From an uncultured bacterium (lineage in GTDB: Bacteria; Planctomycetota; UBA1135; GCA-002686595), in the NCBI GenBank assembly GCA_943787795.1, contig CALSNU010000003.1:448001-512000 (forward strand): 64,000 nt of DNA, in the 5' to 3' direction. Position numbers and translations under genes: made by a program. This document shows, one piece after another, positions 6,903-22,692 of the stretch. The notes beneath the pieces are model-generated. The model searched no databases, was not told where the DNA came from, and saw nothing but the letters and a program-made list of their open reading frames with translations. Each line of letters opens with the position of its first letter. The stretch's first letter is position 1.

Positions 6903-7451
6903 ATGAGTGGCTTCAAGAAACTGGGCTCGAAGGGCAACGTGGTGCACCGCGTGGTGCTTCCTGGCCCGACGAGAAGAGCAGGCGCCCGAGGTACCGGACG
7001 CAGCGGGGCGAGCCTGCGACGTCCAACCGCGGAATCGGAGGGCCGTTCCCCCTCGCTGCCGGCGGCGTGGGGACGCGGCAGGCCGGCCCCGCCGGTCAAT
7101 ACGCCGGTTGATGCGCCGGCCCCGGCGGCCGACTCGGCCGCCGCCCCGCGCTCGCCCTCTGAAGCTCGCCAAGGGCAGCGGGAAACCGAACTCCTTCAGC
7201 GGCGGATCGACAAGCTCTCGAAGTTGTTGACCGAACAAGAGGAGGAGATCCGGAGTCTCTCAGGTGCCCGTGGCCCCCGGCGGAGTCCCGAGTTCGATGA
7301 AGGGGCGGATGAAGAAGCGACGCCGGTCTACGACCTCGTGAAGCCGGGCGCGCCTGAGAGCCCGCGAGGCGAGAAGCGGCGCGCCTTCATGTCGAAGTTG
7401 TTCCAGGCCAACCTGGATCTTCGAGAAAGCGTCAACAAGTCGAGAGCCTGA
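6903..7451 (+). CDS. Hypothetical protein: disordered Pro/Ala/Arg linker plus conserved helical C-terminal 'FQANLDL' domain
   Basis: C-terminus aligns with the C-terminus of 14923..15957; lies directly upstream of the MamK-like actin. Confidence 0.75.
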   Translation: MSGFKKLGSKGNVVHRVVLPGPTRRAGARGTGRSGASLRRPTAESEGRSPSLPAAWGRGRPAPPVNTPVDAPAPAADSAAAPRSPSEARQGQRETELLQRRIDKLSKLLTEQEEEIRSLSGARGPRRSPEFDEGADEEATPVYDLVKPGAPESPRGEKRRAFMSKLFQANLDLRESVNKSRA

Positions 7452-7590
7452 GCCGATCAGGGCTGGGCAGGCGGCCCCCGCCGACGTTCTCGCTGCGGCC
7501 CTTTTCCGCGAGGCCTTCACACGCCATGCTAAGGCATCGCGCAGGCAGGCCGGTTCTTCGCGCGACGGTAGGGGGCACCACCCAAACAAC

Positions 7591-8659
7591 ATGACGAACA
7601 TTCAGACGGACGCTGCGGACGGGCCGGGCCAGGACCAGGGTGTCCTCTACGTGGGCATCGATCTCGGGACATCCCGCACCTCCGTGACCGCGAGCAACGG
7701 GGTGCGCGAGACCATCGAGTCCTTCGTGGGCTACCCCAAGGACCCGGTGGCCATGAAGCTCCTTAAGAAGGACGTCCTCTTCGGCTCGGAGGCGCGGGGA
7801 GAAGCGCCTCTCGCTCAACCTCCATCGCCCGCTCGAGCACGGCGTCCTCAAGTTCAACGCCGACGGCAGCGAGAACCAGGAGTCGCGGCGGGCGGCCATG
7901 GACCTCGTGAAGGAGATCGTGCGCCTCGCCAAGCCCCGGAAGGACGAGCTGGTGTACGCCGTGATCGGCGTGCCCGCGCAGGCGCAGATCAACAACAAGG
8001 ACGCCATCCTCCAGGCGGCGCGGGAGTCCGTTGACTCCGTGATGCTCTGCTCTGAGCCGTTCTCCGTGGCCTATGGCCTGGACATGCTGGAGGACGTCCT
8101 CGTGATCGACATCGGCGCGGGGACCGTGGACCTCTGCCGGATGCACGGCACCATGCCGGAGGAGTCCGACCAGATCACGATGAACACCGCGGGCGACTTT
8201 GTGGACGAGGAGCTAGGTAAGGAGATCGGGGCCGCCTATCCCCAGGCTCAGTTCACGAAGCAGATGGTCAAGGCCATCAAGGAGCGCCACAGCACGGTCG
8301 ACGCCAACACGGAGAAGATCACCACCGAGCTCCCCGTGGAGGGCAAGCCCACCGCGTTCGATATCACAGAGCAGGTCCGCACCGCGTGCCAGCGCATCGT
8401 GCCGCCCATCGTCGAGGGGCTTGGCAAGCTCATCAGCACGTTCGACCCGGAGTTCCAGGAGCGCCTCAAGAAGCGCGTCCTGCTGGCGGGCGGCGGTAGC
8501 CAGATCCGAGGCCTGGATCGCGCGATCACCGAGGAGATGCAGCGCACCCTCGGCGGCGGCAACGTGATTCGGATCGAAGAGCCCATGTACGGCGGCGCCA
8601 ACGGAGCGCTGAAGATCGCGCACGACATGCCCGAGGAGTACTGGGAGCAGCTGAAGTGA
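7591..8659 (+). CDS. mamK: MamK-like bacterial actin, interrupted by a +1 frameshift in GGGG at 7796-7799
   Basis: VGIDLGTSRT, VGYPKD, AVIGVPA, SEPFSVAYGLD, VIDIGAGTVDLC, LAGGGSQIRGL, GALKIAHDMPEEYWEQL follow MamK closely. Deleting one G gives a continuous 355-aa ORF (EAREKRLSLNLHRPLEHGVL). Confidence 0.85.
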
Positions 8660-9864
8660 GCGACCCCGGAACCCGGGAGCAGCAGGCGGCCGGCGACCCT
8701 CCCGAGGGGCGCCGGCCGTCGCTTCTTCCTCGGTCCATCGCCTCTTGGCTCGTGGCGCTGACGCCTTGGTCCGCGACACTCCTGCTGACGGCCGTCGCGC
8801 GCTCGGCTCCCGAGACCGTCGAGAGCCTCTATTCCCGCGGCCTCTATCCCGGCGTCGCGCAGGCCGTGGCGCAGGCTGCGCACGGCTGGGCAGCGCTCAC
8901 GGGGTCGGAGCTGAGGGGCGGCCCGTTCCTGTCCCTGTCCGAGGCCGGGCTGCTCGCCATGGCCGTGGTCGGGTGCTGGGCCCTGCGGCGTGGGTGGCGC
9001 CAGGGGGGCGCCGGCGCGGTGGCCCGACAGGTGCTCGCGGCGAGCGGCGGCGGCGCCCTTGTGTTCCTGTTGCTGTGGGGACTCAACTACTCGCGCCTCC
9101 CCCTCGCGGTGTCGCTCGAGCTCGAGGCCTCGGGGGTCACGGCCGCGGAGCTGGATCGGGTCGCTGCGGATCTTGAGGCGCAGCTCGCGGTGGACCTTGA
9201 GGGCCTCGACCGCGTCGAGCGCGCGACCGAACCCGCGGCGGCCCTGCGCGCGGCGCGTGACGCGTGGCGCCAGGCCAGCGAGCGGGAGCCATCCCTCGGC
9301 GTCGGCACCGGCGTCCTCGCCGGCGTACTCGCCGGCGTGCTCGTACGGCCCGCGCTGTCAGGCGCCATCGTGAGCGGCGGCATCAGCGGGATCTTCAGTC
9401 CATTCACCCAGGAGGCGCATGTGGCCGGGCATCTCCCAGAGCCTGACTTGCTCTTCACGGCGTGCCACGAGCTTGCCCACGCCCAAGGATGGGCGCGGGA
9501 GGATGAGGCCAACTACCTCGCCTGGCGGGTCGGCAGCCGCGCGGCGGATCACAGCTTGCGGGCGGCGGCGCGGCTGCTGGCGCTGGCGCATGTGCTGGGC
9601 GCCCTGGGGCGCGCGGACCGGGCCGTGCTGGTGGACCGCCTCGAGGGGCTCGACCCGAGGATCCAGGAGGCCCTGGAGGAGCGTGCGCGATTCTGGGACC
9701 GGGAGCGCTCGCCCGCGGCGAGCCGGGCGGCGTCGGCGGTCAACGATGCCTACCTGCGCAGCCAGGGCCAGGACGGCGTGGCGTCCTACGGGCGAATGGT
9801 GGACCTGCTGGTGGCAGAGTGGCGCGCGGCGGGTGGGACGCTTCCTGTGGGAGATCCGCGCTGA
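8656..9864 (+). CDS. DUF3810-family membrane protein with HExxH zincin-like motif
   Basis: LLWGLNYSR, GISGIFSPFTQEA, FTACHELAH, WAREDEANY; GTGA overlap with the actin stop. Confidence 0.82.
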   Translation: MSDPGTREQQAAGDPPEGRRPSLLPRSIASWLVALTPWSATLLLTAVARSAPETVESLYSRGLYPGVAQAVAQAAHGWAALTGSELRGGPFLSLSEAGLLAMAVVGCWALRRGWRQGGAGAVARQVLAASGGGALVFLLLWGLNYSRLPLAVSLELEASGVTAAELDRVAADLEAQLAVDLEGLDRVERATEPAAALRAARDAWRQASEREPSLGVGTGVLAGVLAGVLVRPALSGAIVSGGISGIFSPFTQEAHVAGHLPEPDLLFTACHELAHAQGWAREDEANYLAWRVGSRAADHSLRAAARLLALAHVLGALGRADRAVLVDRLEGLDPRIQEALEERARFWDRERSPAASRAASAVNDAYLRSQGQDGVASYGRMVDLLVAEWRAAGGTLPVGDPR

Positions 9865-9894
9865 GGTCGCGGTTGGAGCGTATATCCTGGCTCC

Positions 9895-12800
9895 ATGCCG
9901 AGCCCTCTCCTCGCCGTCCTTCTTGCCGCGTCCGCCACGGCCGCTCCCGCGCTCTCCAAGCCGACCGCCTGCGCTCCGAATCAGGAGGTTTCCGACGAGG
10001 CGCGCCAGGTCCTGTCGCGCATGCAGATCCCCGAGGGGTTCCGGGTCGAGATCTTCGCCAGCGAGCCGATGCTCGCCAATCCGGTGGCGTTCTGCTTCGA
10101 CGTCTTCGGTCGCGTCTACGTGGCGGAGACCTTTCGTCACCACAAGGGCGTCACGGACATTCGGAGCCACATGGGCTGGCTCGAGGACGACCTCGCCATC
10201 AAGACGGTGGAGGACCGGGTCGCGATGTTTCGCAAGCACGAGGGGGAGGACGGGCTGCGGGATGGGTACTCGGTGGAGACCGAGCGGATCACCCGGCTGG
10301 TGGACACGGATGGAGATGGGGTGGCCGACGAGGCCACGGCCTTCGCCGCGGACTTTGCAGACCCTGCCGCAGGGATTGGAGCGGGGCTCCTCGCGCGGCG
10401 GCGGCTGGACGGTGGGACGGAGCTCTGGTTCACCTGCATCCCTGATCTCTGGCGCCTGTTCGACGAGGACGGCGACGGCGTCGCCGAGCGCATGGACCAG
10501 CACAGCACGGGGTACGGCTTGCGTGTCGCGCTCCTCGGCCATGACCTGCACGGACTGGTGATCGGCCCGGACGGCCGGCTGTACTTTTCCATCGGAGACC
10601 GCGGGTTCAATGTGACGACGGACGAGGGCGAGCGGCTCGTCAGGTTCGGGACCGGCGCGGTCTTCCGCTGCGAGCTGGATGGCTCCGGGCTGGAGCTCTT
10701 CTGTGACGGGCTACGGAACCCCCAGGAGCTGGTCTTCGACACGAGCGGGAATCTCTTCACCCTCGACAACAACTCGGACGGCGGCGACAAGGCGCGCTGG
10801 ACCTACCTGCTCAGGGACAGCGACACCGGCTGGCGCCAGGCCTACCAATGGGTGCAGCGGCCGACCGCGCGGGGCCCCTGGAACCAGGAGCGCCTCTGGT
10901 ATCCCTACTTCGAGGGGCAGGCGCTCTACATCCTCCCGCCCATCGCGAACTTCACCAGCGGCCCGTCGGGCATCACGACGTACCCCGGAACCGGCTGGGG
11001 GGAACCGTTGGCACGACACGTTCTTTGTGTGCGACTTCCGCGGGAACCCGGGCTACAGCGGTATCTACTCGTTCCGAAATGCCGCCGAGGGCGCGGGTTT
11101 CCAGTCCGAGGAGGTGGAGAAGTTTGTCTGGGACGTGCTCCCGACCGATGTGGACTTCGGCGTCGACGGCAACCTGTACTTCTCCGACTGGGTGAGCGGC
11201 TGGAACCAGACGGGCAAGGGCCGCATGTTCCGGGTCGTCCCCGAGGTCCGCGACGAGGCCGAGTCCGGCCTCGTCTCGGAGGTCGCCGCCCTCCTGCAAG
11301 GCGGGCTCGATGGGCTCGACGACGCCGCGCTCCTCGCGCTGTTCGAACACCGGGATCGGCGAGTCCGCCAGGAGGCGCAGCTCTTGATGGCGAGCCGCAT
11401 CCTCTCCGCGGGTGACGACGCCGTGGCCGAGGGCAGCCTCACCCGCCTCCTCGAGGTGGTGACAGACCAGGAGGCCCAGGCCCTTCAGCGGGTCCATGCC
11501 CTCTGGTGTGCGGGGCACGTCGGCCGGCTCATGGGGGCGGGCAGCGTCTCAGCCATGCTGCGCTCCGCGTCGCTGGACCAGGCGCTGCTCGCAGCCCTGG
11601 GCGACCCTGACGCCGAGGTGGTGGCGCAGGCCCTGCGCGTGGCCGCAGAGCGCGAAGCGGTGGACTTCCCCAGGGAGGCCCTGGAGCTGTTGAGGGGCCA
11701 CCCTGAGCCCCGGGTCCGGCTGCTGGCCGCCGAGGCCCTGGGGCGGCCGGGGCTGCCCGAGGACCTGGAGGCTGCCGCCTTCGACGAGCTGGTGGACCTC
11801 CTGGAGTCCGAGGGGCCGGGCGACCCCTGGCTACGCACGGCAGCCATCTGTGCCCTGGATCGCATGGGGCCCTCGGCGCCGGTGTCGGCGCTCGCCGATC
11901 ACCCCGCCGACTTCGTCCGTCAGTGCGCCGTCGTGGTGCTCCGGCGGCGCGGCGATCGTCGGATCGCCAGGTTCCTCGCCGATCCCGCGCCCGCCGTACG
12001 GGCGGAGGCCGCCCGTGGAATCCACGACGCGCGGGTGTCGGCGGCCATGGGGGCGTTGTCCGCTGCGCTCCCCAGCCTCGCGGAAGGTGGCGATACCACC
12101 ACGATCCGGCGTTCTCTCCATGCGTGCCGTGAGGTGGCGACCTACGCCAGCGCCTCGCGCCTGCTCGAGTTCGCTTTGGATGAGCGCGCCGATCGGACCC
12201 TTCGGGCCGAGGCTCTCCGGGTGCTGGCGTCGTGGACCCGTCCGCTCACGCGTGACGGGGTGGTCATGGACCACCGCCCGATCCCCGCAGCCGCGGTGGG
12301 CGACCTCCGCCTGGCGGCGACGGACGTGGACGGCGGCGAGGCGCTGGGCAAGCTGACCCGCAGCCCCTCGCTGGCGGACGCCGCGGTGGGGACGGCCCTG
12401 CTCGAGTTGATCGAGAGCCTGGACGACCCAGCGCTCGACGCTGCGGTCCACCTGGCGGCCGTGGCCGGCCAGGCCGACGCGAATGCTGAGGTCCGCCGAC
12501 GTGCGTACCGGATGCTCTTGCGTCGGGCCCCGGAGGCCTCGGTCACTGCGGACCTCACGGCCCGTTCGGCGGTGCAGGCGGGTAGCCCACTCCGCGCGGC
12601 GGCGCTGCTCGAGGTGCACGGCGCCGCCGCGATCTCGATCGTGGCCGAGGAGGCGCGTGACGGGACCGCCGAGCGCAGGGCAGATGCCCTCCGGGTCCTC
12701 GCGGGCTTCCGGGACGACGCCGCCAGCGCGGCGTTCCTCGATGAGGGCGCGCGGCTCAAGGGCGATGACAGCACGCTGCTCGTGGAGTGGTTGCGGTACG

Positions 12801-13333
12801 CCGGTGGAGCCGAGGACGACGCCGTCAAGAGCGCGGCGGCGGCGATGGAGGCGGAGTGGGAGGCGTCCGAGGACCCCCTCGCCCGCTGGCGCATGTGCCT
12901 GGAGGGCGGTGACGCCGAGCGAGGCCGGCGGATCTTCTCGTCCAAGGCCGAGACGAGCTGCATGAAGTGCCATGTGGTGGGCGACGAGGGGGGCTCCGAG
13001 GCCGGTCCGGCCATGGACGACGTGGGCAAGCGGCTCAGCGCCGAGCAGCTCCTCCGTTCGATCGTCGAGCCCAACGCCGAGATCGCTGCGGGCTATGAGA
13101 GCTGGCTGATCATGACCGACGACGGTGAGACGTTCTCCGGGAGGATCCTCGAGGAGGACGCCGAGGTCCTGCTCCTCGAGACGGCCCAGAAGGAGCAGCT
13201 GGAGTTCGAGATCGTCGAGATCAAGGCTCGCCGCCGGGATGTGTCAGCCATGCCCTCGAACGTGGCCTCTCACCTCTCAAGGTCCGAGATGCGCGACCTG
13301 ATCGCGTTCCTCTCCTCTCTCCGCGGCCAGTGA
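9895..13333 (+). CDS. PVC-type heme-binding CxxCH protein (beta-propeller dehydrogenase + HEAT repeats + cytochrome c), +1 frameshift near G6 at 10997-11002
   Basis: Signal peptide; PEGFRVEIFASEP, GPDGRLYFSIGDRG, GLRNPQEL; HEAT-like helices; CMKCH and VSAMP at the C-terminus. The two ORFs join by removing one base (GWGNRWHDTFFVCDFRG). Confidence 0.88.
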
Positions 13334-13396
13334 GCCCACTGCGCCCCGCCGCGGCGGCGGGCGCGGGCCCGCAGGCTCACCACTCAGTCGAAAGCG

Positions 13397-14455
13397 ATGG
13401 ACACCATCATCATCCGGGCAGACGCGAGCACCGCCCAGGGCACGGGCCACGTCATGCGTTGCCTGGCTCTCACGCTCGCCCTCGAGGAGCACGGTGTGGC
13501 GGTCATCTTGGCGGTCGCAGAGTGCCCCGAGGCCCTAGTGAAGAGGGTTGAGGCGAGCGGCGCCCAGGTGGAGCGCCTCGCGGTCGAGGTGGGGTCCCGC
13601 GAGGACGCGGCGGCCACGCAGGCCCTCGCCCGCCAGTCGGGTGCGGGATGGGTGGTGCTCGACGGCTACAGGTTCGACCTCGCGTTCCAGCGGGCGCTGC
13701 ACGGCGGCGGCTTCAAGCTCGGGTTGGTGGACGACTTCGCCCACCTTGAGGGGTACGAGGTCGACCTGGTCCTCAATCAGAACAGCCACGCGCGAGCGGA
13801 GGACTACCCTGGGGTTCCGGCGCTCCTCCTGGGCCCGAGCCACGCGCTGCTGCGCGCTGAGTTTGTTCAGGCTCTTCACGCTCTTCATGGGCGCGCGGCC
13901 AGATCCCATGAAGGGCCCGTCCAGAGGCTGCTCGTGACCATGGGGGGCTCCGATCCTGGGAACGCGACCACGTGTATTCTGGAGGCGCTGGGAGCCCTTG
14001 GGGACGGGCAGCTTGAGACTCAGGTCCTCGTCGGCGCGGCGAACCCCCATCGAGCTGCCGTGGACGCGATGGCCTCGGGGATCCCGGGGTGCCGAGTGCT
14101 CGATCCGGTGAAGGACATGGTGCCCCTGCTGGAGTGGGCGGATCTCGCGGTTTGTGCAGGGGGCAGTACCCTGTGGGAGATGGCGGCCTTCGGCGTGCCC
14201 GTCGCCTGTGTCATCCTCGCCGAGAACCAGCAGCCGATCGTCGCCGATCTCGAGCAGCGAGGGGTGGTTGTCGACCTCGGCTGGGACCGGGAGCTGGACG
14301 CCGAGCGCTGCGCGAAAGAGCTGGGGTCCCTGCTGGCGGACGGCGCACGCCGGCAGCGAATGAGCGAGCTCGGGCGCAGGCTGGTGGACGGCGCGGGGGC
14401 AGCGCGGGTCGTGGCGGCCCTCGTGGAGGTCACCGGTCAACCTGCCCGGCGCTGA
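13397..14455 (+). CDS. pseG: PseG/SpsG-family UDP-sugar hydrolase / glycosyltransferase
   Basis: IRADASTAQGTGHVMRCLAL, LLGPSHALLRAEF, LVTMGGSDP, AGGSTLWE. Confidence 0.85.
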   Translation: MDTIIIRADASTAQGTGHVMRCLALTLALEEHGVAVILAVAECPEALVKRVEASGAQVERLAVEVGSREDAAATQALARQSGAGWVVLDGYRFDLAFQRALHGGGFKLGLVDDFAHLEGYEVDLVLNQNSHARAEDYPGVPALLLGPSHALLRAEFVQALHALHGRAARSHEGPVQRLLVTMGGSDPGNATTCILEALGALGDGQLETQVLVGAANPHRAAVDAMASGIPGCRVLDPVKDMVPLLEWADLAVCAGGSTLWEMAAFGVPVACVILAENQQPIVADLEQRGVVVDLGWDRELDAERCAKELGSLLADGARRQRMSELGRRLVDGAGAARVVAALVEVTGQPARR

Positions 14456-14569
14456 CGCTGTACTGCGGCTCGTCCTCTGTTCTACCGCACCGTGGGCGAC
14501 CTCTGAGCGCCCCTTCCGCGAGAGTGGATCCCTGACGTGCGCCCTTCAGCGGCGGGAGCGTGTCGTGCC

Positions 14570-14672
14570 CTGGGGGCTGGGTGCCTGGGGCCTCGGGGGC
14601 CTGGGGGCCCGGGTGCCTGGGGGACTGGGTGCCTGGGGGACTGGGTGCCTGACGGACTGGGTTGCTGGGCCC
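14570..14672. repeat. Intergenic G-rich tandem repeat, 8-nt period (consensus CTGGGKGC), about 13 degenerate copies
   Basis: ctgggggc tgggtgc ctggggcc tcgggggc ctgggggc ccgggtgc ctggggga ctgggtgc ctggggga ctgggtgc ctgacgga ctgggttg ctgggccc. Confidence 0.85.
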
Positions 14673-14922
14673 CCAGGAGACCGGGCTTGCTGGGCCCGCG
14701 GAAGACGGGGAGACGGGGCTTGGGGGCTGCGGTGAGGCGTGCCGGTGGGCTGAGGGGCTCGGAGGTCGTCTTGCGGGGCGCCAGGCGCCGTTCGGGGTAG
14801 AGCGATGTTGCCCGGGTCTCTCGCTTGGGGACTGGGCCGAGGAGGGATCCAAGGGGTGCTCAAGGGCTCGTGGCGGTGCGGTCGACGTTTCCCTTGTCGC
14901 CCTACGCGGGCGCACTATCCCC

Positions 14923-15957
14923 ATGGCCAACCCCGGAACGCTGAGCTTCAATCCGAGCGGCACGCCGCTGTTCACGGACGACGAGGTTCGTTCGCTGATG
15001 CAGATCGAATTTGATCGAGCGCAGCGCTATCGCTATCCGGTGGCCTGCCTGCTGATCGAGATCGACCGGCTCCGGGATATCCAGACCATGCACGGCTTCG
15101 ATGCGCGGCTGACGATCCTCCAGGCGCTGGTCGAGCTGCTGCAGGGCGAGACCCGAGCGGGGGACCTGCTGGGCACCGTGGTCGATGATCGCCTGATGGT
15201 GCTCATCCCGCACACCATGCCCGCCGCCGCACGAGCGATCAGTGAGCGGGTGCTGAGCGGCGCGCGCCAGATGGAGTTCGTCATCGGCGGCAAGTCGATC
15301 CGCGTGACCGCGTCCATTGGCGTAGCGCACAACCAGGACGATGCGGCGAACTCGGTCGCCACCCTGGAGCGCGTGGCCGAGGAGGGCCTCGCCGTCGCCG
15401 TCGGGAATGGCGGGGGTCAGGTCGCCCAGACCGAGCTCTACGAGCTGTACGAGAAGGAGCCGGCGCCAGAGGCCCCCGCCGTAGGTGACGTGGAGGAGCT
15501 GCTCGCCAGGGCCGAGAGCATGGGGTACCGGCAGCGCCTTGAAGGGCTCGTGGCCGGCGGTGCCCCGCTGGAGTCGGCGGCCCAGGAGGTCGCCAACGAG
15601 GTCGTCCAGCGCGCTGTTCAGCAGGAGCGCGAGCGCTGGAGCCGGGATCTCGAGATGGCGAATGCGCGGATCGAGGCCATGTCGACGACGCTCAAGCAGG
15701 GGGGCGATCGTGCAGGTGTGGACCGGGACCTCCAGCAGCTCAATCGGCGCATCGAGAAGCTCACGCGCTCCCTCGAGACCACCGAGGCCGAGATCGCGCG
15801 ACTGCGCGCGGCGGGCTCCACGGACGAGGGGGTGGCCTCGGTCTATCGCGAGGTCCAGGGGCTCGACAGCGACGAGAACCGCGCGGACCTCAAGCGCGAC
15901 CTGATGGGTGCGATCTTCCAGGCCAACCTGGACCTGCAGTCGCGTCGCAGCGCCTGA
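14923..15957 (+). CDS. Degenerate GGDEF-domain protein with coiled coil and C-terminal 'FQANLDL' domain
   Basis: EFDRAQRYRYPVACLLIEID...HGF...RAGDLLGTVVDDRLMVLIP...VTASIGVA follows the GGDEF fold, with GGDEF replaced by VDDRL. Confidence 0.85.
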   Translation: MANPGTLSFNPSGTPLFTDDEVRSLMQIEFDRAQRYRYPVACLLIEIDRLRDIQTMHGFDARLTILQALVELLQGETRAGDLLGTVVDDRLMVLIPHTMPAAARAISERVLSGARQMEFVIGGKSIRVTASIGVAHNQDDAANSVATLERVAEEGLAVAVGNGGGQVAQTELYELYEKEPAPEAPAVGDVEELLARAESMGYRQRLEGLVAGGAPLESAAQEVANEVVQRAVQQERERWSRDLEMANARIEAMSTTLKQGGDRAGVDRDLQQLNRRIEKLTRSLETTEAEIARLRAAGSTDEGVASVYREVQGLDSDENRADLKRDLMGAIFQANLDLQSRRSA

Positions 15958-20713: not shown

Positions 20714-20877
20714 GGGCGGGAGGGTGCCAGAGGGTCGGGTCACGGGGTTCAGAATTCGGCGGTTGGCAAGAAAAGAGCATTGGGGGCAAGGAGCGCCGCT
20801 CGATGGCTGAGGGCAGGGAGCGCGGGTTGAGCAGGTGATGGTTGAGATCGGACCTCGCGGGTTCCTATCGTCGTGCC

Positions 20878-22692
20878 ATGGCGAGCGAGACGACCCAGGC
20901 CGGTCCGGCCGCGCGCGCTGCCGCGGCAGGCGCGCTCGACCCCGGCGCCCTCTTCACGCTGGAGGAGGCGGCGGGTCGGGTGCGCGTTCCCATCGAGGAT
21001 CTCGAGGCCCGCTGCGACCGCGGCGAGCTGCTCTTCGAGACGCGCCGACGGGGCCGCCAGGAGGTGCGCTGCGTCCGAGGTCTTGATCTTGCGGAGGCCT
21101 TCCCCGGCGCCCCCGACCCAGCCCGTTCGTTGGGCAAGGGCCGCTCATCCGGCGGCGCCAGCGTGCCCGATCGACCCAGCCTGGGCGGGGGCGCGGCGGA
21201 CGGGTCGAATCCGCGCGAGCCCTCAGCGGCTTCCCCATCGGCCTCCCCGGTGACTTCCCCGGGGTCCCCTAAAGAGCCCTCTTCAGGTTCTTCTCTAGGG
21301 TCCTCTTCAGCGGGGACTGAGGCGAAGGACAGGGGCGGGGTGGCTGCGGATCCTGGGCGGGTTCAGTCCACTGCCGCTCAGGCCGCTGCGACTCAGGCCG
21401 CTGCGACTCAGGCCGCTGCGACTCAGGCCGCTGCGACTCAGGCCACTGCGACTCAGGCCACTGCGACTCAGGCCACTGCGACTCAGGCCGCTGCGACTCA
21501 GGCCGCTGCGACTCAGGCCACTGCGACTCAGGCCACTGCGACGTTCCCGGCGAGCGGACCTCGAGGCAGCGGACCTCGAGACAGCGGACCTCGAGACAGC
21601 GGAAACAGCGTCGCGGAGGCGGTTCGAGGCTCGGGGGCGAGCCGAGACGCGCTGATCGGGCTGTGCCAGGATCTGGAGACACGCCTGGACCTTGCCGAGC
21701 GAGAGCGTCAGGCGAGCACCGCCTCGTTGCTCATGGCCCAGCGGCACGTCCTCGACCTCGAGCTGCGAGGTCGCTCAGGGTCCTGGGTTCGAGCGGGTGG
21801 CGCCGCGCTGGGGCTCATGTCGGTCTCGGCGCTTGTCGTCATGGCGATGCTCCCCGGCTGGTTGGACGACCGAGCGGCCGGGCGCGAGGCGCTTCAGGGC
21901 GCCCAGCTCACGGCCGAGATCGGTCGGCTGGAAGCCTCCATGGGGTCGCTGGCCGCGGCCTCGGACGAGGAGCGAGCGGCGCTCTCTGCGCAGCTCGAGG
22001 CCCGTACTGCGCAGCTTGCGACCCGTACGGAATCGCTGGTCGCGGAGCGGCGTCTCGCGCTGCAAGCCATGGCGGACGCGGCGGCGGAGCGTGAGCGTGC
22101 GGAGGAGGTCCGGCTCGCGAACATCGAGCAGCTGAACCAGCTCGAGGAGCGGCTCGTGGCCTCCGACCGGCAGGCGGTCCGCCGCAGCGCTGAGCTCGGG
22201 GTCATCGTGGAGTCGAGCGCGCGTGATCGTGCGCGGTTCGACGAGCGCCTCGCCGCAGCGGAACGGTCTGCGGGGGCTGCGCGAGACGCCCTGAGCGAGG
22301 CCAGAGCTCGCTCCGCTGAGGAGCGGCGCCGCTACGAGGATCAGCTCGCCGCCGCGGAGGCGGAGCGTGCCGCCCAGCACGCCGCGCGCGCGGCAGAAGC
22401 CCAGGCGCTCCGGGCCGAGATCCGTGGATTGATGGCCGAGCTTGAGCTGGGTCAGACCCGAGCCGTCGCGGCGTTGGAGGCCGCGGAGGCAAGGCTCCTG
22501 ATCCAGATGGAGGACCGCACCACCTCTGATGGCGGGGTCTTCACGGAGGTCAGCGCCCCTGGCGCGGTCGCAGCGTCCGCCGCGGGGATGCCCCTCCCTG
22601 AGGGTTCAGTTCCCGTCGAGGTATGGGACCTCCCGGAGGCGCCGGCCGGGTCCTGGTGGACCCGGGCCCTTCGCTCGATGGTCGGCCGCTGA
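20878..22692 (+). CDS. Membrane-anchored protein: N-terminal MerR/excisionase-like HTH, repeat linker, TM helix, long coiled coil
   Basis: FTLEEAAGRVRVPIEDLEARCDRGEL; TM GGAALGLMSVSALVVMAML; A/E/R-rich heptads; C-terminal SWWTRALRSMVGR. Confidence 0.7.
   Translation: MASETTQAGPAARAAAAGALDPGALFTLEEAAGRVRVPIEDLEARCDRGELLFETRRRGRQEVRCVRGLDLAEAFPGAPDPARSLGKGRSSGGASVPDRPSLGGGAADGSNPREPSAASPSASPVTSPGSPKEPSSGSSLGSSSAGTEAKDRGGVAADPGRVQSTAAQAAATQAAATQAAATQAAATQATATQATATQATATQAAATQAAATQATATQATATFPASGPRGSGPRDSGPRDSGNSVAEAVRGSGASRDALIGLCQDLETRLDLAERERQASTASLLMAQRHVLDLELRGRSGSWVRAGGAALGLMSVSALVVMAMLPGWLDDRAAGREALQGAQLTAEIGRLEASMGSLAAASDEERAALSAQLEARTAQLATRTESLVAERRLALQAMADAAAERERAEEVRLANIEQLNQLEERLVASDRQAVRRSAELGVIVESSARDRARFDERLAAAERSAGAARDALSEARARSAEERRRYEDQLAAAEAERAAQHAARAAEAQALRAEIRGLMAELELGQTRAVAALEAAEARLLIQMEDRTTSDGGVFTEVSAPGAVAASAAGMPLPEGSVPVEVWDLPEAPAGSWWTRALRSMVGR
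21361..21603 (+). repeat. In-frame 15-nt tandem repeats: about 12x ACTCAGGCCRCTGCG (TQAAA/TQATA), then 3x SGPR(G/D)
   Basis: Ten exact units at 21391-21540 plus two degenerate units upstream; three AGCGGACCTCGAGRC units follow. Confidence 0.95.

Follow-up and report, generated by a model that had tools for sequence, protein, structure and literature searches.

Two proteins encoded in a 64,000 nt stretch of an uncultured planctomycete genome (assembly GCA_943787795.1, contig CALSNU010000003.1, positions 448,001 to 512,000; hereafter the window) end in the same C-terminal module, which is probably the actin-binding end of an undescribed family of regulators of saltatorellin, a MamK-family actin. 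Protein A is a short paralog encoded directly upstream of the saltatorellin gene, and protein B, encoded further downstream, carries the module behind a degenerate GGDEF domain (Table 1). Genome context and a predicted complex both favour docking of the module on the actin; from the site as mapped it would act on filament ends or on monomers, with the N-terminal parts of the proteins supplying the input.

An earlier note, made from the DNA alone, had proposed that these two otherwise unrelated proteins share a tail of around 80 aa. Both open reading frames (ORFs), and the segments quoted from them, are present where it had placed them, and a protein alignment bears the proposal out: residues 93-174 of A and 268-339 of B are identical at 28 of 82 positions (34%, E 7e-9). 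A hidden Markov model (HMM) of the two tails detects a third copy in the same genome (contig C1, 810155-811687; E 5.5e-15, the next-best match having an E of 0.13), which sits at the end of its ORF and is 55% identical to the tail of B. A 20-column HMM of the helix likewise finds the three known copies only (22.8-35 bits; next 9.1). The third paralog (L001:8156-9688 in our numbering of loci) is of the widespread coiled-coil type described below, has a long low-complexity N-terminus and is distant from the actin gene.

The 17 nt reported to be identical in the two tails are indeed so, and occur just twice in the 4.7-Mb assembly. As they encode the FQANLD core of the module, and the likeness between the tails at the DNA level is confined to a single 20-bp stretch (19/20), they reflect codon conservation and add nothing beyond the protein match; a DNA element or a recent duplication was rejected as their origin on the same grounds. 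The family also has a central motif, D-x-G-x-x-S-x-Y-R-x-V-Q-G-L. The shared 'DEG' is present as quoted, but the resemblance is partly incidental, because this motif is eroded in A.

No named family accounts for the module, and the earlier note had recognised none. Pfam yielded weak coiled-coil matches to it, none over cut-off among the 25 of 84 families shown for the module alignment, and NCBIfam had no family accounting for it, again giving weak coiled-coil matches only. The best match among PDB sequences was tropomyosin, at an E of 0.0098 and to the coiled-coil part only; Foldseek gave no match at E≤0.001, and the best ESM Atlas scores (0.85 and 0.86) were under the 0.9 lead level. Matches to tropomyosin and coronin were treated as coiled-coil bias. 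The comparison with PopZ and MamJ stands as an analogy only: A has no Pfam match at E≤1, PopZ is absent from the 25 of 84 families shown for the module, and no MamJ model was matched in the Pfam and NCBIfam scans of A, B or the module, the presence of such a model in the library being unchecked.

The gene following A had been described as a MamK-like actin, and both of the pieces into which it is split in the assembly match NF040964 (60 and 336 bits, or 359 for the larger piece in a second scan, against a curated cut-off of 400), with intact orthologs over the cut-off in 35 of 41 relatives. The E values of an intact homolog against MamK structures and against BeeR are 3e-77 and 6e-35, respectively. 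We call the actin saltatorellin because both of its termini correspond to peptides specified by the primers that cloned saltatorellin of Saltatorellus ferox, as given in 10.1101/817700, and because an ortholog of B is on record for S. ferox Poly30 (WP_145197977.1, 55% identical, named 'diguanylate cyclase'). A tblastn search found no second actin copy in the genome. The extra G that splits the gene is absent from contigs of three of four runs (from three studies) and is kept in the possible source run, at a depth of 3.5; most of the population probably carries an unbroken gene.

The distribution of the module is tied to that of the actin, as the proposed link to mamK-like genes would have it. 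Amongst 301 Planctomycetota genomes, in which the actin was called at E≤1e-40, it was found in 111 and the module in 73, all of them within the 111; none of the 190 actin-negative genomes has the module. Thirty-eight of the 41 relatives carry the module, and the three that do not also lack the actin, as do four genomes of the same order that are 89-91% complete and have neither (G027, G029, G039 and G308). Gene order follows the same pattern: 35 of the 37 over-cut-off actin genes in the relatives are preceded by a module at a distance of no more than 1 kb, with a module found on re-inspection for one of the remaining two (L041) and one 2.4 kb away for the last. Across the phylum, 74 of 91 module matches lie at most 1 kb upstream of an actin gene on the same strand, and the same holds for 69 of 81 matches in the 80 of 143 named loci shown. 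The direct upstream neighbour of the actin is the GGDEF form in 37 of 46 loci at which that form occurs and the coiled-coil form in 23 of 26. There are one to four module matches per genome in the family to which the window belongs, as opposed to one in other families of the order; within its genus, the short A form lies directly upstream of the actin and B is found 7-8 kb downstream in a conserved block.

MamK-like actins are often present in two or three copies in the 111 genomes, which extend well beyond Saltatorellus isolates. At one locus (L040:9743-11689, genome G014), a block of other genes separates the A-type gene from the actin.

Predicted docking of the terminal helix

The complex of module and actin was predicted for a natural homologous pair, that of locus L043, with two custom 39-row alignments. 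The interface score (ipSAE) was 0.78, compared with 0.00 for the best of three controls; this mark is attained in 116 of the 157 solved pairs and in 2 of the 215 mismatched ones, which is a rough benchmark, as the alignments were our own. At least 74% of the contacts recur between runs, with a predicted local distance difference test score (pLDDT) of at least 61 for the partner. On the module, the confident contacts are confined to residues 57-80; on the actin, they involve residues 118-126, 136-138, 146-152, 171-173 and 327-339. The contact positions are amongst the best conserved of the module (N73 in 39/39 sequences, K62 in 38/39, F70 in 36/39). Both A and B retain them, the contact residues of all three copies in the genome are intact and, for the proteins of the window, these positions are conserved on the module and actin sides alike.

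Evolutionary support for binding of actin by the helix, independent of the predicted complex, comes from the A-type proteins: the central motif has been lost in 9 of 20, including A itself, whereas the terminal helix is kept in 20/20. Protein A also lacks the long coiled coil. Its description as an otherwise disordered Pro/Ala/Arg linker holds for aa 23-90, to which the low-complexity part is limited (76% P/A/R/G/S), but not for the whole of the remainder, as a motif around NVVH at the N-terminus is conserved across A-type orthologs.

In the model, the terminal helix appears to dock in the groove between actin subdomains IA and IIA. Since the next subunit fills this groove in related filaments, such a site would point to control of ends or monomers and not to a side scaffold. 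The earlier suggestion of a filament-docking tag is partly borne out, docking being favoured by the genome context and the predicted complex. The note had also named three outcomes that would speak against it, namely a known family of unrelated function, a distribution independent of the actins and the lack of a predicted interaction; none of these was found.

We propose that the coiled-coil helix probably oligomerises the protein, whilst the last 20 or so residues would form an amphipathic helix that binds actin; seated in the groove as mapped, it would target monomers or the barbed end. The non-staggered end of a MamK-type filament would accommodate a two-fold coiled-coil dimer well. Protein A is a short copy keeping the predicted actin-contact helix, and with one saltatorellin and three paralogs in the genome, the paralogs may compete for one site. 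A role as nucleator, capper or end-tracker, after the manner of ParR, seems somewhat the best bet; sequestration of the arcadin-2 kind is a less likely possibility, and any other role is rather unlikely.

The module family may thus work like ParR or arcadin-2 whilst being a member of neither; no ParR, arcadin-2 or WH2 entry is present among the PDB matches to E 10, and Foldseek gave none at E≤0.001. In the ParR-ParM system of plasmid R1, the C-terminal peptide of a neighbouring gene's product likewise occupies the groove of a bacterial actin, and ParR can bind only the barbed end. The module family differs in being chromosomal, with no DNA-binding family detected, no sequence match and several paralogs with differing N-termini. 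Eukaryotic WH2 also consists of a short helix, lodged in what would be the same groove and reused with different inputs; no WH2 model is listed in the Pfam scans of the window proteins, the module or the longer homologs, and the likeness is likely to be convergent. The closest archaeal parallel is arcadin-2, whose gene is in the crenactin cluster and whose C-terminal peptide binds the IA/IIA groove in competition with the next subunit (PDB 5LY3; as described in passages of PMC5173319). Unlike the module proteins, arcadin-2 is a shown depolymeriser; there is no sequence match, and the helix of the module is preceded by a coiled coil and sensor-like domains.

N-terminal domains and the size of the family

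A 29-row profile of the module recruits 933 clusters at 50% identity (E≤0.001). Amongst the 150 of these listed, the module occupies the C-terminus or lies close to it, save in one long-tailed protein (P0147), and custom profiles divide them into 59 of GGDEF type, 42 with a helical N-terminal domain and coiled coil, and 49 unassigned, mostly short. Pfam recognises GGDEF in 38 of the 116 longer homologs scanned, and no other domain is fused as often in the 120 of 284 longer homologs listed. The fusion in B, regarded in the earlier note as one of various cargos, is not an occasional one, given how regularly the GGDEF form adjoins the actin. The widespread form, comprising the helical N-terminal domain and a long coiled coil, is predicted to be all-helical and has no fold match.

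The GGDEF fold of B is clear (PF00990, 49.9 bits against a cut-off of 23.8; Foldseek match to DosC at an E of 2.4e-11 and a root-mean-square deviation of 1.8), and the predicted structure of the protein, with a mean pLDDT of 83.6, shows this fold followed by helices. In an alignment to PleD, the catalytic signature is replaced by VDDRL, whilst R78, D81 and R109 align with R359, D362 and R390, which we take to be the primary I-site residues of PleD. A sample of 75 distinct homologous domains, each with at least 120 aligned residues, contains no GG[DE]EF signature; RxxD is found in 57 and all three I-site residues in 54. Many database entries of the family are labelled 'diguanylate cyclase' despite lacking the catalytic signature. 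There is roughly an even chance, judging from these residues, that the dead domain of B binds cyclic di-GMP (c-di-GMP) at the I-site, by which route B would receive its input. The genome encodes three intact GG[DE]EF domains and one EAL domain.

PelD and PopA are degenerate-GGDEF receptors of c-di-GMP. Like B, receptors of this type have a GGDEF fold that has lost the active site and retains the I-site; they differ in that the output of B would be an actin-binding tail, a fusion absent from the literature matches listed. The fusion may have arisen from a free-standing copy of the dead domain (C3:196477-196950), a paralog that lacks the module and is 41% identical to the domain of B. The ORF of this paralog (C3:196426-197037) keeps RxxD and lies just upstream of a response regulator.

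Other N-terminal parts are more sporadic. Three homologs with hydrophobic N-termini do not adjoin an actin gene (L096:3180-4511, L097:3726-4820 and L098:15537-16529), the first two having two predicted membrane segments each. A PilZ-like domain is found in four distant homologs (L082:2632-3939, L084:1628-3862, L086:1608-3887 and L103:136-2475), three of which are directly upstream of the actin; two of the four match PF07238 (best E 9.4e-5), RxxxR is not evident, and the domain has no PDB match. Several diverged proteins upstream of the actin retain the terminal helix only, two of them as a tandem pair at the end of the protein (L073:3176-3871 and L091:2035-3819, each upstream of an actin copy). 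Tandem-WH2 nucleators exist, and this pair recalls them. A different protein precedes lower-scoring MamK/BeeR-like actins at L088:3276-3815 and L090:3111-3911, with a shared terminal motif around IP-x-x-DIQ, and perhaps represents another regulator family.

In the 80 of 143 named loci shown, all titles are of Planctomycetota or unclassified bacteria except for one 3.3-kb contig; this (L136, 3341 bp, titled Ca. Paceibacteria) has the module and an adjacent actin, and is probably mis-binned. A FastTree phylogeny of the module (93 sequences, around 80 columns, matches of less than 65 aa dropped) is too weakly supported to order events.

Points of doubt and competing explanations

Several observations count against the module being an actin-binding end with a signalling input. 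Thirty-eight of the 111 actin-positive genomes have no module match, and 74 of 144 actin loci have one; a re-reading of 20 module-less loci recovered five weak HMM matches and a further five terminal helices by pattern. In family f60, the actin is preceded by a gene with no relation to the module family, and proteins of about 400 aa (L207-L210) share the N-terminal helical domain, have another conserved C-terminus and lie away from the actin. As the genomes are related, the counts overstate independence, hence we give no P value. In the predicted complex, the pLDDT of the partner is only 61-63, conservation of the actin interface is barely above that of the whole protein (0.81 vs 0.75) and no confident contact involves the central motif, which is conserved to the same degree as the helix. 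The prediction concerns a homologous pair instead of the window proteins, the groove was assigned by motif offsets rather than by superposition, and the high score may merely echo solved structures, as helix-in-groove complexes are already in the PDB (5LY3, 4A62). As to c-di-GMP, RxxD is missing in 18 of the 75 homologs and can persist without a signalling use.

Of the alternatives, the one that fares best, with a small chance of being right, is a MamJ-like adaptor that binds the side of the filament, the module tethering cargo such as the GGDEF domain or the membrane along it without control of the ends. The genes for MamJ, LimJ and Mg-1g50 of magnetotactic bacteria are accessory genes directly upstream of mamK, according to passages of PMC10653835, a position shared with the module gene; A is mostly low-complexity, and the N-terminal membrane segments predicted in L096 and L097 would suit a tether. 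However, the predicted site maps to a groove overlapping the ParM/crenactin polymerisation interface, and no model of these proteins was matched (with the library's coverage of MamJ unchecked, as above).

It is also improbable that the module is a self-assembly tag, PopZ-like or intermediate-filament-like, by which the paralogs form a coiled-coil network beside the actin without binding it. The all-helical widespread form with its long coiled coils fits such a role, as does the central motif, which is disordered when the protein is modelled alone and takes no part in the predicted complex, behaviour to be expected of a segment that folds when the module self-associates; coiled-coil Mad proteins form a network with MamK in other bacteria, as reported in part of PMC12748827. 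What argues against it is the high score of the predicted actin complex and the retention of the terminal helix, not the central motif, in eroded copies, although the module could both self-assemble and bind actin. Very unlikely is the proposal that only one paralog works, the tail of A or B being a duplication relic and the GGDEF domain a structural pseudo-enzyme with no c-di-GMP input: the lack of a central motif and long coiled coil in A, the GGDEF-type paralogs with no recognisable I-site (L107, L110, L050 and L056) and the frameshift in the actin would fit, but the contact residues are intact in the three copies and in all A-type proteins, GGDEF-type proteins adjoin the actin at most of their loci and the frameshift is missing from most runs.

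If the module is indeed the saltatorellin-binding end of a regulator family, signalling in bacteria would be coupled directly to actin dynamics through a second-messenger domain joined to an actin-binding helix, and a small family of control proteins may regulate the actin of shape-shifting planctomycetes. Bacterial actins have few known accessory factors, as stated in part of PMC13170167. Filaments of saltatorellin from S. ferox Poly30 are reported in E. coli and Magnetospirillum, with no partner mentioned in the parts of 10.1101/817700 and of the other literature that were searched. Saltatorellin was proposed as the motor of the shape change of Saltatorellus, with no known regulator. The family supplies residue-level candidates in a cultured organism whose actin filaments form in E. 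coli, hence a simple test is available. More speculatively, early-branching planctomycetes could own an actin-regulator toolkit convergent with WH2, in which one groove helix is mounted on a scaffold of coiled coils, on a GGDEF or PilZ-like domain that senses c-di-GMP or on a membrane anchor, or is arranged in tandem. In the family of the window, a single actin would then be tuned by three or four paralogs, and its assembly would be switched by c-di-GMP, driving the shape change and amoeba-like movement reported for Saltatorellus.

Features of the window and neighbouring genes

Table 1. Positions of the two module proteins, their parts and the genes around them.
Feature	Position	Strand	Remarks
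Protein A, short paralog	6903..7451	+	182 aa from ATG; N-terminal motif aa 1-22, linker aa 23-90, module aa 93-174
Module in A	7179..7424	+	coiled-coil helix, linker, terminal amphipathic helix
Terminal helix of A	7362..7433	+	R159, F162, M163, L166, F167, N170 and L173 at predicted actin-contact positions (homolog prediction, mapped by alignment)
17-mer, copy 1	7401..7417	+	codons of the FQANLD core
Saltatorellin (MamK-family actin)	7591..8659	+	frameshifted in assembly; both pieces match NF040964, at E 1.9e-16 and 2.1e-100
G run with one extra base	7796..7799	+	splits actin gene
Intervening genes	8656..14455	+	DUF3810 protein, split cytochrome-c-type protein, glycosyltransferase
Protein B	14923..15957	+	344 aa; degenerate GGDEF domain, helical/coiled-coil region, module
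GGDEF-fold domain of B	14977..15429	+	aa 19-169; I-site R78-x-x-D81 and R109; VDDRL (aa 87-91) replaces catalytic signature
Module in B	15724..15939	+	aa 268-339; helix 263-296, low-confidence loop 298-318 with central motif, helix 321-343
Terminal helix of B	15877..15948	+	K324, L327, M328, I331, F332, N335 and L338 at predicted actin-contact positions
17-mer, copy 2	15916..15932	+	exact repeat of copy 1

A magnetosome context was not found: the neighbours in the window are unrelated genes, the best MamA match in the 85%-complete genome reaches 46.8 of 200 bits, and MamI has no match in it, nor was there a control match for that search. A promoter scan gave no sites, and four terminators were predicted where 2.1 would be expected. 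Contigs of one RNA run (X15) overlap parts of A and the actin, which is not a demonstration of transcription.

The order actin, DUF3810 protein, heme protein and B recurs in 11 of 36 loci. The heme protein is presumably of cytochrome c type, to judge by its CxxCH motif; its large gene (9895-13333) seems to be split into overlapping frames (9895-11415 and 10679-13333), possibly by another single-base slip, and the order of both halves is conserved in relatives. Further downstream, the ORF at 20842-22692 encodes around 12 tandem five-residue repeats resembling AAATQ, after which come a hydrophobic segment and a lengthy coiled coil.

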